A stretch of DNA of 64,000 bases, taken from the NCBI GenBank assembly GCA_963824995.1, contig CAWGRK010000010.1, positions 184,928 to 248,927 of the forward strand, in the 5' to 3' direction. The notes under the pieces were generated by a model. It did no database searches, was not told where the DNA came from, and worked only from the letters and a program-made list of their open reading frames with translations. The DNA is from an uncultured Actinomycetes bacterium. GTDB taxonomy: Bacteria; Actinomycetota; Acidimicrobiia; Spongiisociales; DATADW01. Positions 3,000 to 64,000 of the stretch are shown piece by piece. The position numbers and the translations under genes are program-made. How positions within the stretch are numbered: the stretch's first letter is position 1; each line of letters starts with the position of its first letter.

Positions 3000-3446
3000 C
3001 ATAAGTACGGCGCTGGTGCCCTTTTCGGCGTCTCGGAGCCTGCTGCACATGGTCACAAGCAGCTTGAAGGTGATCGTCGGCGAGGACTTGAGCAGCGGGT
3101 GGAAGTCCCACGACGCCACCCCGAAAGTGCGCAACGCTGTGCCCGCAATCACGGTGGCGGTGCGCGGCCCCCCGTCGATCATCGAGACCTCTCCGAACCA
3201 CTGCCCCGCTCCCAGCTTGGCAACGGTGCGTCCCTTCTTCGTGACCCGCGCCTCGCCATCGAGGATCAGGTGAAAACCGACCCCCTTCTCTCCCTCGGTG
3301 ACCACGGTGTGCCCTTCGGCGTGGTCCACCACCCGCCCGGTCCTGGCGAGTTGGTCGAGCTCGCGTTTCGATAGATCGGCGAAGAGCGGCACCCGTCGAA
3401 GCATCTCCACTTGCTGCTTCCTCGTCACCAATGAGATCACCTCCAT
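2997..3446 (-). CDS. Stand-alone cyclic nucleotide-binding domain protein
   Basis: LRRVPLFADL, FGEVSMIDGGPRTATV; no CRP HTH domain. Confidence 0.9.
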   Translation of the reverse strand: MEVISLVTRKQQVEMLRRVPLFADLSKRELDQLARTGRVVDHAEGHTVVTEGEKGVGFHLILDGEARVTKKGRTVAKLGAGQWFGEVSMIDGGPRTATVIAGTALRTFGVASWDFHPLLKSSPTITFKLLVTMCSRLRDAEKGTSAVLM

Positions 3447-3507
3447 CCCCCGCCTCCCTCAGCCTACGCAACGGAAGCCGCCTTCGGCGGCGGCGTACCC
3501 TGTCGCC

Positions 3508-6439
3508 GTGCGGTCGCACGATGTATCGCCCGCCCGGCTCGGTATCTGGGACGGGCTACTGCCACGGTTGCGTGCCGTGGGTTGGGTCGACTCGGACGGG
3601 CTGGTCGTCGGACCGGCGGTGACATTGCTTCGACGGCTGCGGGGTGGCCCCGACCCCGAGGGGGCCCTCGAACGGCTGACGGCCGTGGTGGAAGCCGAAC
3701 CCCGGCTGGCGGAGGAGGCCCTCTCCGACTATGCGGTTGGCACCGCCCTGGTGACGGTGTGCGGGTCGAGCCGCGCTTTGTCTACGACTCTGGCGTCCCA
3801 CCCCGTGTGGATCGCTGAACTGCAAGATGGCGACCCTCATCTTCGAGACGAGGTCGAGCCCGGACTGCGGAGCATCGAGTTGCGTACCTTCACCCGAAGA
3901 TCGGTGCTGGGCATCGCGGTCGATGATCTCTCCGGGCGTATCGCCATGCCCGAGGTGGGAAGGCGACTTGCCTCCCTGGCCGACGCAGTAGCGAGGACCG
4001 CCCTCCAGTGGTCAAAGGAGGAGGTCCTCTCGACACCCCGTTTCGAAGGGCTGACCGACCTTCCGATGACGGTTGTCGCCATGGGGAAGTGGGGCGCCGG
4101 CGAGCTCAACTACTCGTCCGACATCGACTGTCTATTCGTCTACGACCTTGCTGCCAACGCCGATCCCGATCAGTCGCGTCATGCGGCGCAGCGGATCGCC
4201 TCGACCTTTACGAACCTGCTTGCCCGGGCGACGCCTGAAGGCATCGCCTTTCGGGTGGATGCCGACCTGCGGCCCGAAGGGAAGAACGGGCCACTCGCAA
4301 GGAGCCTCTCCTCGTACTCCGCCTACTACGCCAAGTGGGGCGAGCCGTGGGAGTCCCAGGCGCTGCTCAAGGCAAGACCGGTGGCCGGTGATCCGGACCT
4401 CGGTGACCGCTTCGCCGCAGATAGCGATCCGGACCGTATGGCCGGAGTCGCTCGACCCCGCCTCGATCCGGTCCATCAGAGGCATGAAGGCGCGAAGCGA
4501 AGCCCGTGTCGAGAAGCAGGGCCACGCCGCCACCGAGATCAAGCGTGGATTCGGCGGTATCCGCGATGCCGAGTTCGCCGTCCAACTCCTCCAACTCGTA
4601 CACGGTCGTTTCGACCCATCGCTCCGGGCGCCGGCCACGCTCGACGCCTTGGCGGCGCTGGCTGCCGGAGGCTACGTGCGGCAGGAGGACGCCAACGCTC
4701 TCGACGCCTCGTACCGGTGGCTCCGGACCCTCGAACACCGGCTGCAGCTATGGGAAATGCGACAAACCCACGCCCTCCCAACCACTCCTGCAGGGCGGGA
4801 GCGGGTGGCCAAGGCGATGGGGTACCGCGACGAGGAAGGTGGGTCTGCCCTCGAGCAGTTCGAGCATGACCTGAAGACGCATCGGTCCAGAGTCAGGGGG
4901 ATCCACGAACAGCTCTTCTACCGGCCGCTCCTCGATGCCATCGCCGCCTCGCCCACGGTTCGGCTCACTGCCGAGGAGATCGCCCGGCAACTGGCGGCAT
5001 TCGGTTTCAGGGACGTCGTCTCGGCCCGAAGAGCGGTGGACGAGTTGACCGGCGGGCTCTCTCGGCGCTCTCGGCTCATGCGGCAAACCCTGCCGTTGGT
5101 GCTCGACTGGCTCTCCACCGCCCCGGACCCCGATCTCGGGCTCAACCAGCTCCGACTGCTGGTGACTTCGACAACCGACAACGCCCCGCTGGTTGCCGTG
5201 TTGCGCGATGACCCGGTCGCGGCCGAGAGGCTGTGCCGTCTGCTCGGTGACAGCGTGCTGGTCGGCCGTTACATCGATCGGCTCCCAGATCTCCTCCCCG
5301 AACTCGGCGACGACCGCCGACTGGGATCGGCGCCGACCGGCGACGAACTCGAATCGGAGGTGACAGGGGCCATAACGCTTCGCCCGACTTGGGAACAGCG
5401 GCTCGACGAGTTGCGACGATTCGTCCGTCGTAGGGTCCTCAGAGTGGCGGCTCGCGACCTCCTCGGGCTGGCAGACGAGGGAGAGGTCGGCACCGAGTTG
5501 TCGGCGATCGCCGACGCCGCTACCCGGGCAGGCATCGTGCTGTCGCGGGATCGTCTTCTGCTGCGCTACCCGTCGTCGGTCGAATTCGCCGTTATCGGAA
5601 TGGGGCGCTGGGGGGGCGAGGAACTGGGATACGCATCCGATCTCGATCTCCTCTACGTGTACGACGTGCCCGAGGGCGCCGACCCGGTGGGGGCGAGGGA
5701 GCAAGCACTCAAGCTGGCCAACCTGCTCGGTGCAGCCCTCGGCGGTGTTCGACCCGAAGGCATCGCCTACCGGGTGGACGCCGGACTGAGGCCCGAGGGC
5801 CGGGCCGGGCCACTCACCCGGACGCTCGACTCGTACCGCGCCTATTGGGAGCGCTGGGCGGAACCGTGGGAGCTCCAGGCCCTCATCCGGGCACGTCCTG
5901 TGGCGGGTGACGAAGGGCTTGCTGCACGGTTCGTCGCTGCCGCCGCCCCGTTCGTCTGGCCCGAGCGGCTCTCGTCGGAGCGCGTCCGGGCGATTCGAAC
6001 CATGAAGGCCCGCGTCGAAAGAGATCGGATACCTCCTGGTGAGGATCCCGACTTCCATCTCAAGCTCGGTCCCGGCGGTCTCGTCGATGTCGAGTTCACC
6101 GCGCAACTTTTCCAGCAGAAGCACGGCGGAGCGACGCCGGCGCTGCGCGGTCCCGGGACGCTTGGAGCGCTGAGGGCGGTGGCCGCGGCAGGACTCATGC
6201 CGGTCCCCGAGGTGCAGGCACTCGATGAGGCTTATCGGTTCTGTACCCGTGTCCGCAACCGGCTGTTCCTGCAGACGGGTCAGGGCCGCGACTCTCTGCC
6301 CACCGACCCAGAGGAGGCGATCAGGCTCGGTCTATCGCTTGGTTTCCTCGACGCGCCACGTGCCAGCCTACGAGAGGACTACCGACGGCTCACCAGACGC
6401 GCCCGCCGGGTCGTCGAACGGAGGTTTTATAGAGACTGA
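3508..6439 (+). CDS. glnE: Glutamine synthetase adenylyltransferase/adenylyl-removing enzyme (frameshift near 4420)
   Basis: Two NTase domains (MGKWGAGELNYSSDID...DADLRPEG; MGRWGGEELGYASDLD), IKRGFGGIRDAEF and KLGPGGLVDVEF; split between ORFs 3298 and 4073. Confidence 0.93.
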
Positions 6440-61163: not shown

Positions 61164-61735
61164 GTGACGGGACCATCATCGACCGGGATCCAGAGCACGC
61201 CACCGTGAGGTTCGAGCGGAGCGTGGACGCCGATATCGCCGATACGTGGCGGTGGTTCACCGAGCCCGACCGGCTCGAGCAGTGGCTTGCGGCGACCAAG
61301 ATCGACCTGAGGGTGGGAGGAACCGTCGAGCACCGCTTCGATGACACCGAAGGGGGACTGGCTCATGGCCGTATCCGGCGCCTCGAGGTGCCTCACGCCC
61401 TCGAGTATGAGTGGCGGTTTCCCGGTGAGCCTGACAGCTTGGTGAGCATCGAACTTCGGCCCGAAGGTGACCGCACGGTCATCACCCTCACCCACCGCCT
61501 GCTCGGCATCTCCCATGCAGCCGGCTACGCCGCCGGGTGGCACGCCCACCTAGACCTGCTCGAGGCGGCGATCACGGGAGGATCGCTGAGCTGGGACGAG
61601 CGGTTCGGGGAGCTGATCGGTGGCTACCAGGCAATGTTCAACTCTCCCTCGGCGGCGACCACCTCCACCGAGACCCCGGAAACCGCGGGCGCCTCCCGTG
61701 GGGAGACGCTCACCACTGGGCAAACGACCCCGTAG
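61160..61735 (+). CDS. SRPBCC/AHSA1 domain protein
   Basis: VRFER, WRWFTEPDRLEQW, GWHAHLD. Confidence 0.88.
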   Translation: MSDGTIIDRDPEHATVRFERSVDADIADTWRWFTEPDRLEQWLAATKIDLRVGGTVEHRFDDTEGGLAHGRIRRLEVPHALEYEWRFPGEPDSLVSIELRPEGDRTVITLTHRLLGISHAAGYAAGWHAHLDLLEAAITGGSLSWDERFGELIGGYQAMFNSPSAATTSTETPETAGASRGETLTTGQTTP

Positions 61736-63339
61736 AGCGCGGAGGCCGCCATCGCCCCGACGGAGATGATCACGTCCGGCTCGGAGAGGACGATCGCCGC
61801 CGGCCCGGTTCCAAGTCGAAGCGATTCGGCGAGCACGCTGGACGACGAACTCGACCCGCGACCCGATGGCATGACCAGCACCCGACCGGTCACCGACTCT
61901 CCAAACTGGGGGTGATGTGGGTCGATGATCCGACCGTCGGCAGGATCGACACCGCCCCAGAAGGAGAGTGCCTGGCGGAGCAGCAGGGCGGCGCCGGTGG
62001 CTCGTCCCGGGAATAGGACACGGTCGTCTGAGTCCGCCGGCTCGGACACGGCCAATTCCTCCCAGTGGATTGGGTCTCCGCCGGACCAGAGGGGAGATTG
62101 GCGACGCACCACACCCGAGACCGCCGAAGCGACGCGGTCGCGGCGCGATCCGAAAATCACCTCCACCCCGAGATTGGCCGGGGCGTACCAGGCCCACTTG
62201 GCCGAGTCGGTCATCACCACCCTCGCCTCGGGGTCGAGGATCGGGGTGATATAGGTGCAAGTGTCGCTGACCATCCGAACCCCGGCCGCCTCGAGGACCT
62301 CGACATCTGAGCGGGCGGCAGCGACATCTCCGCGACCGGCGTTCACGTAGGTGTCGATCCGCACCTCGCGGCCATCGAGCAGCCGAGCCAGTTCGGCGAG
62401 TTCTGTCCTGGAAGCATGGGGAGTGCCAATGCACACTGCGTCGAGCCGGTCCCCGGTCGCCGTGGAAAGCTCGGCTGCCGCGGCCGAGAGAAACCCAGGA
62501 TCGACGAGCACCTCGAACTCGGCGGCCTCCCGGCCGCCAAGGGCGTCTTCGAGTGTCGCCGCCTCCGGCGTCACGCCGACGGCGTGGAACATCGCCACCG
62601 ACCCGGCAGACGCCGCAGCGGCGCCGACCGCCTTCAACCGGTCCTCATCGGTATCGGGAGGCAAACCGACGAGCACCGGGACCACCGACCCCGCCAGCCG
62701 ACCGAGAACGTGGCCAACCACCGGATAGAGGGCGTCATCCTCGAGCCAATCGTCCGGGACGCCGTCGAGGCGGACGACGAGACGGGCCCGCCGCCCGGCG
62801 TCGAGGTGGAGCCCAGCGGCGGGCGCCCGACCAGTCACAGCGGCGGAAATGTCGATGAAGTCGCCGTAGCGGCCGGTACGCGCCCCGAGGACGCTGTTGG
62901 CGAAGACGATGGCGTTCGACTCTGCCCAGGCAACTTGGTCCCCGAACGACGGACGCTCCATCAGTTGGTACGGGGAGCACGTCCAGGTGGGGCGACATCC
63001 CATCTCGACGTAAGCGTCCATGAGCCGGCGGGCTTGCACGGCCAATTCGGGATCCCCGCGAAAGCGCTCGGGATGGAGCAGGTCGAGCGTGGACACGTTG
63101 AGCGTGGTGGGCACAGCCGCCTTCGTCCCTGCCTCGGCCAAGAGAAGGGCGAAATCGAGACTCGCCTGACCGTGGTAGAGGCAACCGTCCACGTGGGCCC
63201 CGGCGATGTCGAGCAGACGATCCGCACCTAGGGCTTTCGCCGCCCCCACCACCACCTCCATGGCGATCCGCGGACCCTCACCACGGTCACCATCGAGCAT
63301 TCCGATGTCGTCGTCTTCGAGATGAAGTTCGGGTCGCAC
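61624..63339 (-). CDS. Aconitase X, catalytic domain in frame with a C-terminal swivel domain
   Basis: HVDGCLYHG, TCSPY, WAESNA, GTPH, DTC, TDSAKWAWY; LSFWGGVDP, GRGSSSSS; start uncertain. Confidence 0.85.
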   Translation of the reverse strand: MRPELHLEDDDIGMLDGDRGEGPRIAMEVVVGAAKALGADRLLDIAGAHVDGCLYHGQASLDFALLLAEAGTKAAVPTTLNVSTLDLLHPERFRGDPELAVQARRLMDAYVEMGCRPTWTCSPYQLMERPSFGDQVAWAESNAIVFANSVLGARTGRYGDFIDISAAVTGRAPAAGLHLDAGRRARLVVRLDGVPDDWLEDDALYPVVGHVLGRLAGSVVPVLVGLPPDTDEDRLKAVGAAAASAGSVAMFHAVGVTPEAATLEDALGGREAAEFEVLVDPGFLSAAAAELSTATGDRLDAVCIGTPHASRTELAELARLLDGREVRIDTYVNAGRGDVAAARSDVEVLEAAGVRMVSDTCTYITPILDPEARVVMTDSAKWAWYAPANLGVEVIFGSRRDRVASAVSGVVRRQSPLWSGGDPIHWEELAVSEPADSDDRVLFPGRATGAALLLRQALSFWGGVDPADGRIIDPHHPQFGESVTGRVLVMPSGRGSSSSSSVLAESLRLGTGPAAIVLSEPDVIISVGAMAASALYGVVCPVVSVSPREAPAVSGVSVEVVAAEGELNIAW

Positions 63340-63440
63340 GCCCGGATTCTGGTCGGGCGGACCTGCCACCTGAGGTGGTGGCTCGGACAAATTTCCGGCC
63401 TCCCGGTCCGCAATCCCCCAATTTTCGGTATTCTGCCAGC

Positions 63441-63558
63441 CACGCCGAGCCCGGCTGTCTGCGGCCGGGGCGGGGGACCCAATCCATGGGGCGAATCCCG
63501 GTACGCCGGGTAGGGCGCCTTCCGGCCCGAGCCCGTCAGCTAACCCCGTAGGCAGCAG
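63441..63558 (+). ncRNA. c-di-AMP riboswitch (ydaO-yuaA)
   Basis: Hallmark segments gccgagccc, cgggggaccc, tggggcgaatc, gtaggg, cccgagcccgtcagctaaccccgtaggc in the expected order; -10-like TATTCT at 63429. Confidence 0.88.
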
Positions 63559-63629
63559 GAAGGAGGCCAGCTTGCTGGCTCTCCGCGGATCGCCGGTCTG
63601 GGACCGGCCGACATGAGGGGGCGGAGAAC

Positions 63630-64000
63630 ATGCCGCACCGGAGAGCCGACATAAACCGGCAGATGCGCCGAAGGGTCTTGGTCGCCGATCGCGAGGGGGC
63701 CAACCTGCCCTACTCGAAGGGGCTGATGGCCGCCTCGATCATGGCAACGGGCATCCCGCCGGGCCGGGCCTATGACCTTGCCGAACTCATCGAGCACGAT
63801 CTGCTCTCCTTGCGACAGGACACCGTCGATGCAGACACGCTCTCCGGCATCGCCGCAGATGTCCTGCTCCGGCACGCCGGCGATCACATAGCGCGCGGAT
63901 ATCTCGCCTGGAGGGCGGCTAAGCGCTCCCCGCGCCCAATCGTCGTCCTCATCGGCGGCGCCACCGGTGTGGGCAAGTCGACTGTCGCCACCAAGCTCGC
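63630..64000 (+). CDS. 2-phosphoglycerate kinase-like protein (ATP-cone + P-loop), 3' truncated
   Basis: Manual translation: LPYSKGLMAASIMATG...YLAWRAAKRSPRPIVVLIGGATGVGKSTVATKL; absent from the ORF track because it has no stop in the window; start 63630 or 63663. Confidence 0.8.
   Translation, partial: MPHRRADINRQMRRRVLVADREGANLPYSKGLMAASIMATGIPPGRAYDLAELIEHDLLSLRQDTVDADTLSGIAADVLLRHAGDHIARGYLAWRAAKRSPRPIVVLIGGATGVGKSTVATKL

Follow-up and report, generated by a model that had tools for sequence, protein, structure and literature searches.

A c-di-AMP riboswitch ahead of genes for a 2-phosphoglycerate kinase and a cyclic 2,3-diphosphoglycerate synthetase homologue in soil Acidimicrobiia: a proposed OFF switch for the synthesis of a K+-pairing solute

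The DNA analysed here is a 64-kb window (G000:C10:184928-248927, the whole stretch of 64,000 nucleotides) of the genome G000, which belongs to a soil bacterium of the Acidimicrobiia (Actinomycetota) and consists of 2.9 Mb in 17 contigs, at 85% completeness. Close to the 3' end of the window, the + strand carries a riboswitch aptamer of the class that recognizes cyclic di-AMP (c-di-AMP), followed by a gene of the 2-phosphoglycerate kinase (2PGK) family and, beyond the window end, by a gene for a homologue of cyclic 2,3-diphosphoglycerate (cDPG) synthetase (cDPGS). The features on which the analysis relies are given below, in window positions or, past the window end, in positions of the locus L002.

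63429-63434, + strand: candidate -10 box TATTCT (TANNNT type), read from the sequence, 8 nt 5' of the first base of helix P1.
63433-63569, + strand: c-di-AMP riboswitch aptamer of the ydaO/kimA type (Rfam RF00379).
63518-63523, + strand: loop CCUUCC, putative 5' strand of a pseudoknot, complementary to the tail at 63558-63563.
63558-63563, + strand: 3' tail GGAAGG after P1, putative 3' strand of the pseudoknot.
63562-63584, + strand: hairpin H1 (GGAG-G-CCAG, loop CUUG, CUGG-C-(U)-CUCC); two G of its lower stem also belong to the pseudoknot tail, and the CU-rich strand is part of that stem.
63579-63586, + strand: CU-rich strand b, CUCUCCGC, by its complementarity a putative anti-Shine-Dalgarno or anti-initiation-region segment.
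63615-63627, + strand: purine-rich Shine-Dalgarno (SD) region GAGGGGGCGGAGA, 5' of the ATG at 63630, read from the sequence.
63630-64000, + strand: 5' part of the 2PGK-family gene (full gene 63630-64574, L002 558..1502, ATG start, 314 aa).
63638-63647, + strand: codons 3-6 segment CCGGAGAGCC, downstream partner of strand b in a predicted 9-bp helix with 63578-63586.
L002 1499..2806, + strand: cDPGS gene (435 aa, GTG start), beyond the window end.

In the Rfam scan the aptamer matched RF00379 over its full length (model positions 1-134 of 134) with 76.8 bits (E 4.4e-16), the gathering score being 38. RF00379 was the sole Rfam family over threshold in the window, and a search of the whole 2.9-Mb genome found it in single copy. 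A preliminary description, made from the letters only, had called a complete ydaO-yuaA aptamer here, and the covariance model bears this out; the TATTCT box, the hairpin ccagc-tt-gctgg (63567-63578), the segments tctccgc (63580-63586) and gcggaga (63621-63627) and the motifs of the open reading frame (ORF) were likewise all found where it had placed them. Aptamers of relatives scored 75.5-92.4 bits. In an alignment of nine aptamers, 6 of the 33 predicted pairs showed compensatory changes on both sides, and most other pairs were invariant. The CCUUCC loop was invariant in all nine and was also found in L056 and L135, while the GGAAGG tail follows P1 in every aptamer examined, L028 having GGGAGG, which keeps the pairing through G-U. 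We take this loop and tail to be the strands that form the pseudoknot of the RF00379 class. In c-di-AMP riboswitches, formation of the pseudoknot is reported to be promoted by the ligand, and a single-molecule study describes it as the ligand-sensitive regulatory element, able to outcompete a stem-loop by strand displacement (PMC11963983). G000 encodes one diadenylate cyclase, DisA (DAC, DisA-linker and HhH domains), so that the ligand can be made. The covariance model thus confirms a genuine full-length c-di-AMP aptamer in the window RNA, which would be expected to bind c-di-AMP.

The candidate -10 box is retained as TATTCT or TAATCT in five leaders of the same genus, and the corresponding positions of L027 and L028 read TAGCAT and TAGGCT. 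As a strict sigma-70 scan of 63250-64000 returned no promoter-like site, the box stays a candidate. The divergent upstream neighbour encodes an aconitase-X-family protein (61624-63390, minus strand; AcnX plus swivel domain, E 3e-123) and has a 240-nt intergenic region in common with the riboswitch promoter.

The translated kinase contains the motifs PYSKGLMA and IGGATGVGKST. Its best NCBIfam matches are the two 2-phosphoglycerate kinase models (the pair NF003259/NF008994), one at E 2.3e-75 and the other, the 306-position archaeal-length model, at E 4.2e-69 with an alignment over positions 5-296. The next function-named model, mevalonate-3-phosphate 5-kinase, follows at E 1.7e-21, some 50 orders of magnitude weaker. 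In Pfam, ATP-cone reached 22.3 bits, under its cut-off of 25.8, and P-loop families gave weak matches. The identification as a 2-phosphoglycerate kinase made in the preliminary description is supported; its qualifier "archaeal-type" is too restrictive, since the family model also matches the Thermus and Deinococcus control genomes. Metatranscriptome contigs from the RNA libraries of four runs of one rhizosphere study cover L002 574-915 (window 63646-63987), which is the third of the kinase gene nearest its 5' end; each contig is 150-229 nt long and shows 0-3 differences. They hint weakly at transcription in soil of this gene or of its counterpart in a near-identical strain, DNA carry-over being possible. 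On the aptamer, the four RNA-library runs gave only 31-45-nt pieces of the conserved core; because their ends are loose on both sides, these pieces come from riboswitches of other organisms and are uninformative for the window leader. No sequencing run contained half or more of the words of the stretch.

The preliminary description had looked to the DNA downstream of the kinase for a cDPG synthetase, and a homologue indeed starts there, with a GTG that overlaps the TGA stop of the kinase by 4 nt (GTGA). The same 4-nt overlap recurs in L022-L024, L027, L028 and L135. The local Pfam and NCBIfam collections hold no cDPGS family, and the identity was accordingly drawn from a phmmer search of PDB sequences, in which the protein matched the crystallised Methanothermus fervidus enzyme (8ork, E 2.2e-65; also 8oru; 9sxb, E 1.1e-62). 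Residues 5-415 align with 8ork 6-440, a full-length match that includes the unique N-terminal domain; the precomputed Pfam family is PF27272. Ligand and catalytic residues, taken from section 8 of PMC10690619, were mapped by hand onto the 8ork alignment. Ten of the 11 mappable ones are identical (E45, K46, K145, R146, K149, T150, D208, T353, E404 and K406), E305 is replaced by D, and P335 could not be placed. The Walker A motif GTGKRTGKT is present, K145, R146, K149 and T150 belonging to the P-loop GTGKRxGKT; E45 and K46 are the trans-subunit substrate contacts, E45, K46, K145 and R146 contact 2,3-diphosphoglycerate (2,3-DPG), and T150 and D208 are Mg2+ ligands. Bacterial homologues are numerous (4994 proteins at E <= 1e-10 among 8000 scored) and already carry this name at JGI and NCBI, so that the annotation of a bacterial cDPGS is not new in itself. 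Taken together, the two genes would form an operon whose product is cDPG. In three genus-mates (L022, L025 and L026, from G005, G004 and G003) the cDPGS frame is split or shifted, with matches in 2-3 pieces and ORFs of 473, 335 and 325 aa; assembly indels and real pseudogenes are indistinguishable here.

The order riboswitch, 2PGK, cDPGS was found in 10 loci from five lineages (G000 and five genus-mates, L027, L028, L056 and L135), and every riboswitch-linked locus has it. In the genus, the riboswitch directly precedes 2PGK-cDPGS in 6 of 6 genomes. Among 41 genomes of the same taxonomic order, G000 included, cDPGS occurs in 13 and RF00379 in 10, always in single copy. The counts for the order, for the 401 Acidimicrobiia and for the survey of cDPGS loci include the unpublished genomes G010, G021 and G404, on which the conclusions do not depend. 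Of 23 species-representative cDPGS loci, seven carry the riboswitch, five of them from the genus-mates, the other two being L027 and L028, which have a cDPGS of 54-55% identity. In metagenomes, 490 relatives were confirmed and 80 loci retained from them; our own covariance model R1 detected the riboswitch in L056 alone, a result confirmed by Rfam on the 20 closest of these loci. A 2PGK relative at E <= 1e-40 exists in 20 of the 401 Acidimicrobiia genomes, and one of the 19 loci from other genomes, L135 (G373), has the riboswitch. Upstream of riboswitch-less cDPGS or 2PGK loci we found no other Rfam family except tRNAs, and one EGFOA RNA lying 3.3 kb downstream in L038. Loci near-identical to the window come, by their record titles, from metagenome-assembled genomes of Acidimicrobiia or Actinomycetota, and record titles and run labels make the carriers appear to be mesophilic soil bacteria.

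For the phylogenies, rows from the unpublished genomes G010 and G404, high-scoring segment pairs under 250 aa for 2PGK or under 370 aa for cDPGS and those with stops were omitted. In the cDPGS tree, for which 30 of 103 distinct rows were picked and 28 are present, the riboswitch-linked rows form one clade (8 of 28 rows, SH-aLRT 99). In the 2PGK tree (67 rows) all 10 riboswitch-linked rows fall into a clade of 11 with a support of 99, the eleventh being the long-branch L153, whose placement is unsure. The simplest reading of these trees would be a single capture event, that is, an innovation of a single clade. The gating of cDPG synthesis by c-di-AMP in a bacterium, as suggested in the preliminary description, is supported by a riboswitch-2PGK-cDPGS locus, with a riboswitch link that extends to one clade only. 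One cDPGS-2PGK pair lies on a 3.3-kb contig assigned by binning to "Zavarzinia sp." (Pseudomonadota; L043); in the 2PGK tree it falls among Actinomycetota sequences on a long branch, which may reflect either mis-binning of the contig or a transfer.

A terminator scan of 63250-64000 found no hairpin followed by a T tract on the + strand; its sole match lies on the minus strand, within the coding region. The region between aptamer and start codon contains instead a set of mutually complementary segments. The tail after P1 reads GGAAGGAGG, and its first six bases complement the CCUUCC loop. Strand b (CUCUCCGC) is complementary to the GGAG of this tail, by which it can lengthen H1, to GCGGAGA in the SD region (63621-63627) and to codons 4-6, CGGAGAGCC (63639-63647). 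The H1 stem GCCAG/CUGGC is invariant in all five lineages, its loop being variable (CUUG, UUCG, CUAG, CUCG, UCCG, AGAUG, CGCG, UCUG and ACCG), and with the tail free H1 is an element of the predicted minimum free energy structure in L022, L024, L027, L028, L056 and L135. The SD region is retained in the genus, and L027, L028, L056 and L135 have SD regions containing GGAG. In codons 3-6, CCGGAGAGC of the G000 genus is retained in L027 despite a different N-terminal protein sequence. A CU-rich strand complementary to the SD or to early codons is conserved in all five lineages.

We folded eight leaders from the five lineages by partition function, blocking the six tail bases to mimic the pseudoknot. 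Blocking lowered the probability of pairing between strand b and the tail from 0.10-0.73 to 0-0.27 and raised that of pairing between b and the SD or codons in 8 of 8 leaders. The gain was on the SD in L028, L056 and L135, and on the early codons in the G000 genus and L027, where the probability reached 0.86-0.95. These models lend the relay a support that is directional, not decisive. Two further elements of the leader were considered and rejected. A UUG-started upstream ORF of 14 codons (63572-63616, + strand), which overlaps H1 and has the UGA within ACAUGA as its stop, is probably fortuitous because the UUG start is not kept in genus-mates (it is absent in L022 and L026). An alternative pairing of GCUGGC with GCCAGC in the 5' flank of the aptamer was dropped, that flank not being conserved in the genus.

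Gene neighbourhoods were surveyed by tblastn at 109 cDPGS loci, 54 of which have enough flank on both sides. In these well-flanked loci, cDPGS is adjoined by 2PGK in 42 cases and by a gene for a calcineurin-like metallophosphoesterase (MPE) in 44, the commonest order being MPE, cDPGS, 2PGK on one strand (23 loci). In the riboswitch clade (8 loci) 2PGK comes first and a convergent ABM-MPE pair, with a small ABM-domain gene, follows cDPGS; in G000 this pair occupies L002 2788..3914 on the minus strand, just past the window end, with the MPE gene at 3090..3914. The MPE protein matches Pfam Metallophos (E 1e-19), has the phosphodiesterases GpdQ and Rv0805 as closest solved relatives (PDB E 2e-9 to 3e-7) and is a candidate hydrolase of cDPG or 2,3-DPG. 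A sister group of cDPGS loci (L011, L012, L016 and L057; cDPGS 52-54% identical) lacks the riboswitch and has cDPGS, the convergent ABM-MPE and then a distant 2PGK (38-41% identical). Since both gene order and kinase differ there, the riboswitch clade is also set apart by a rearrangement or replacement of the kinase gene.

The same class of riboswitch has a second type of target among sibling genomes:

L045 1501-1640, - strand: antiporter-linked riboswitch of G031.
L049 1501-1637, - strand: antiporter-linked riboswitch of G009.
L155 833-982, + strand: antiporter-linked riboswitch of G373.

The lone riboswitch of G009 and of G031 precedes a gene of about 500 aa of the Na_H_Exchanger family (Pfam PF00999, E ~1e-49, as verified on the copies of G009 and G373), and so does the second riboswitch of G373, a genome which therefore has both targets, antiporter and 2PGK-cDPGS. 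G000 encodes just a 27%-identical relative of this antiporter. In the antiporter leaders the pseudoknot tail GGAAGG stands 1-14 nt before the start codon, an arrangement that looks like a direct SD-occlusion design. A c-di-AMP riboswitch regulon made up, in this order, of a cation/proton antiporter and a cDPG operon would fit an ion and osmotic theme.

c-di-AMP signals that K+ and osmolytes are replete. We lean, with a moderate degree of confidence, towards a c-di-AMP riboswitch that controls a translationally coupled 2PGK-cDPGS operon, high c-di-AMP being the OFF state for a K+-pairing anionic solute. The kinase would convert 2-phosphoglycerate to 2,3-DPG, and the synthetase would use 2,3-DPG and ATP to form cDPG. 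At low c-di-AMP, the tail GGAAGGAGG would be free to pair with CUCUCC as the lower stem of H1, the initiation region would be open and both enzymes would be made. At high c-di-AMP, the ligand-stabilised pseudoknot (CCUUCC/GGAAGG) would capture the tail and free the CU-rich strand, which would then pair with the SD region or with codons 4-6; translation of the kinase would drop, and with it that of the coupled synthetase. A signal of K+ and osmolyte repletion would in this way halt synthesis of the trianionic solute, which would be de-repressed during K+ import. The polarity agrees with the description of c-di-AMP riboswitches as OFF switches (PMC9960051), and the osmotic role with the reported hypersensitivity of a Streptomyces disA mutant to ionic osmostress (PMC10117811). 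cDPG is a trianion that accumulates with K+ in methanogens; for M. fervidus, 500-900 mM K+ and a cDPGS requiring high K+ are reported (PMC12136491).

Several observations weigh against this proposal. The kinase scores under both curated equivalog cut-offs (254 vs 603 bits and 233.2 vs 343 bits), its family also contains mevalonate-3-phosphate 5-kinase, and a PDB sequence search with it gave 0 matches, hence no solved relative. The stem of H1, being invariant, gives no covariation proof. In the folding of the G000 leader, mean SD accessibility hardly differed between the tail free and blocked (0.63 vs 0.63; 0.54 vs 0.52 by a second measure), and over the eight leaders the mean unpaired probability at -14..+3 was unchanged in six, the SD-region measure dropping by <=0.1; with accessibility near-constant at equilibrium, the switch is not arguable from thermodynamics alone. 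Moreover, in G000 the helix between b and the codons is dominant already without the pseudoknot (P 0.71 at equilibrium), so that a switch there must be kinetic, that is co-transcriptional, or act at another level. The link itself is narrow and limited to one clade: in the relatives' loci that were scanned, the riboswitch is absent from 79 of the 80 metagenome loci, from 16 of the 23 species-representative loci and, within the order, from the cDPGS loci of G008, G017, G019, G028 and G037. The G000 genome is just 85% complete. To our knowledge, cDPG has never been demonstrated in a bacterium, and what is said of it in PMC10690619 confines it to hyperthermophilic methanogens.

The same riboswitch could govern the same genes with the same OFF polarity at the transcriptional level, by attenuation without a canonical terminator or by Rho-dependent termination, rather than by occlusion of the SD or initiation region. 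A tight translational block would itself expose the mRNA to Rho, and the almost unchanged SD accessibility at equilibrium also counts for transcriptional control. Precedents are the c-di-AMP-induced premature termination reported in a review for Streptomyces rpfA (PMC10117811) and the lack of a canonical terminator noted for that riboswitch (PMC9960051). The + strand of 63250-64000 is, however, free of terminator-like hairpins with a T tract, and complementarity of the CU-rich strand to the SD or early codons is conserved in all five lineages; the tail located at the SD of sibling antiporter leaders, 1-14 nt before the start codon, points to a translational logic in this order. We therefore regard transcriptional control as unlikely, if a serious contender. 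A further conceivable reading is that the aptamer is an inherited relic that has lost its regulatory function, or that it responds to another ligand, a view to which the predicted "off" helix of G000, favoured even without the pseudoknot, lends something. Full-length aptamers of 76.8-91.3 bits are nevertheless retained in lineages between which enzyme identity is down to 54-59%, the platform segments are conserved as well and DisA is encoded in the genome, which leaves this view highly improbable.

A different doubt concerns the product. The operon may be under riboswitch control and yet serve another purpose than the compatible solute cDPG, by making another phosphorylated acid or by using cDPG or 2,3-DPG as a store of phosphate, carbon or energy; a reserve role of cDPG in Methanothermobacter is reportedly found in the older literature. 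The kinase, under its equivalog cut-offs and in a family with other specificities, would allow this, and as the hosts are apparently mesophilic soil bacteria, the thermoprotective role known from methanogens is not transferable. A GpdQ/Rv0805-like phosphodiesterase linked to cDPGS in 44 of 54 loci would also fit a cycle of turnover or reserve. On the other hand, no substitution is seen among the contacts to 2,3-DPG (E45, K46, K145, R146) or in the Mg2+ ligands (T150, D208), and the adjacency of cDPGS and 2PGK in 42 of 54 loci is what is expected of consecutive steps of a pathway. The physiological setting also speaks for a solute: the same riboswitch stands ahead of a cation/proton antiporter in sibling genomes, and the targets of known c-di-AMP riboswitches, as described in PMC9960051 and PMC10117811, are overwhelmingly genes for K+ and osmolyte transport and for the cell wall. 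A product or function other than the solute seems to us distinctly unlikely, and we retain the translational OFF switch for synthesis of a K+-pairing anion as our working proposal.

The literature searched contained no pairing of a c-di-AMP riboswitch with a 2-phosphoglycerate kinase or with compatible-solute synthesis, in agreement with the preliminary description, which knew of no account of it; an unremarked entry in the gene lists or supplements of Nelson 2013 or Block 2010 is possible. Nor did we find there a link between diphosphoglycerate and Acidimicrobiia. The cDPGS literature that we found treats cDPG as confined to methanogens and mentions the gene in ammonia-oxidising archaea, and genes preceded by ydaO in Actinobacteria are described as almost all cell-wall related (PMC9960051, citing Nelson 2013). 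What is undescribed in the literature searched is thus the combination of riboswitch and pathway, and the domain of life in which it occurs. c-di-AMP limits the uptake of K+ and osmolytes; with a riboswitch placed before an operon for solute biosynthesis, its regulon would widen from transport to synthesis and a K+ signal would be linked to a K+-balancing anion. The regulatory context also suggests that bacterial cDPGS homologues belong to osmotic and K+ physiology, which makes the question of a bacterial solute testable. As a more tentative idea, on balance somewhat more doubtful than credible, cDPG, hitherto regarded as a thermoprotectant peculiar to hyperthermophilic methanogens, could be widespread in soil Actinomycetota as a compatible solute that balances K+, synthesised and turned over by a three-gene module of 2PGK, cDPGS and a GpdQ/Rv0805-like MPE in the role of the long-sought cDPG hydrolase. 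A c-di-AMP riboswitch would then, for the first time, be seen to govern de novo synthesis of a solute instead of its transport. The enzymes would be mesophilic and possibly easier to handle, for an extremolyte described as being of biotechnological interest (PMC12136491).

Among known systems, the Bacillus subtilis ydaO/kimA riboswitch belongs to the same aptamer class and shares the conserved core and the pseudoknot strands with the window RNA; an OFF response and a place in a K+/osmotic regulon are expected of both. It differs in having an intrinsic terminator and a K+ importer as its target (PMC9960051), whereas the window leader has no terminator and precedes two biosynthetic enzymes. The closest parallel for the platform is Corynebacterium glutamicum nlpC, also actinobacterial and terminator-less, for which reporter and RT-qPCR data led to the conclusion of a translational OFF switch, and for which a relay was proposed between an upstream GGAG, a CTCC and the GGAG of the ribosome-binding site, c-di-AMP freeing the CTCC to block that site (PMC9960051). 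All three elements are present in the window leader. The nlpC target is however a cell-wall peptidase, and for L027 and the G000 genus the predicted main partner of the CU-rich strand is codons 4-6 and not the SD; both relays are proposals. For the pathway, the model is M. fervidus (PDB 8ORK/8ORU; PMC10690619, PMC12136491), of whose two enzymes homologues that align over most or all of their length are encoded here, with the Walker A motif, substrate contacts and Mg2+ ligands of the synthetase conserved. Here, by contrast, the host is bacterial and apparently mesophilic, the genes stand in one riboswitch-controlled operon, the kinase scores under the 2PGK cut-offs and the product is deduced from the genes. 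The kdpFABC riboswitch of Bacillus thuringiensis (PMC6488665) likewise concerns K+ homeostasis; it is described as acting transcriptionally on a transporter operon, whereas the riboswitch of the window would act on the synthesis of a presumed counter-anion of K+.

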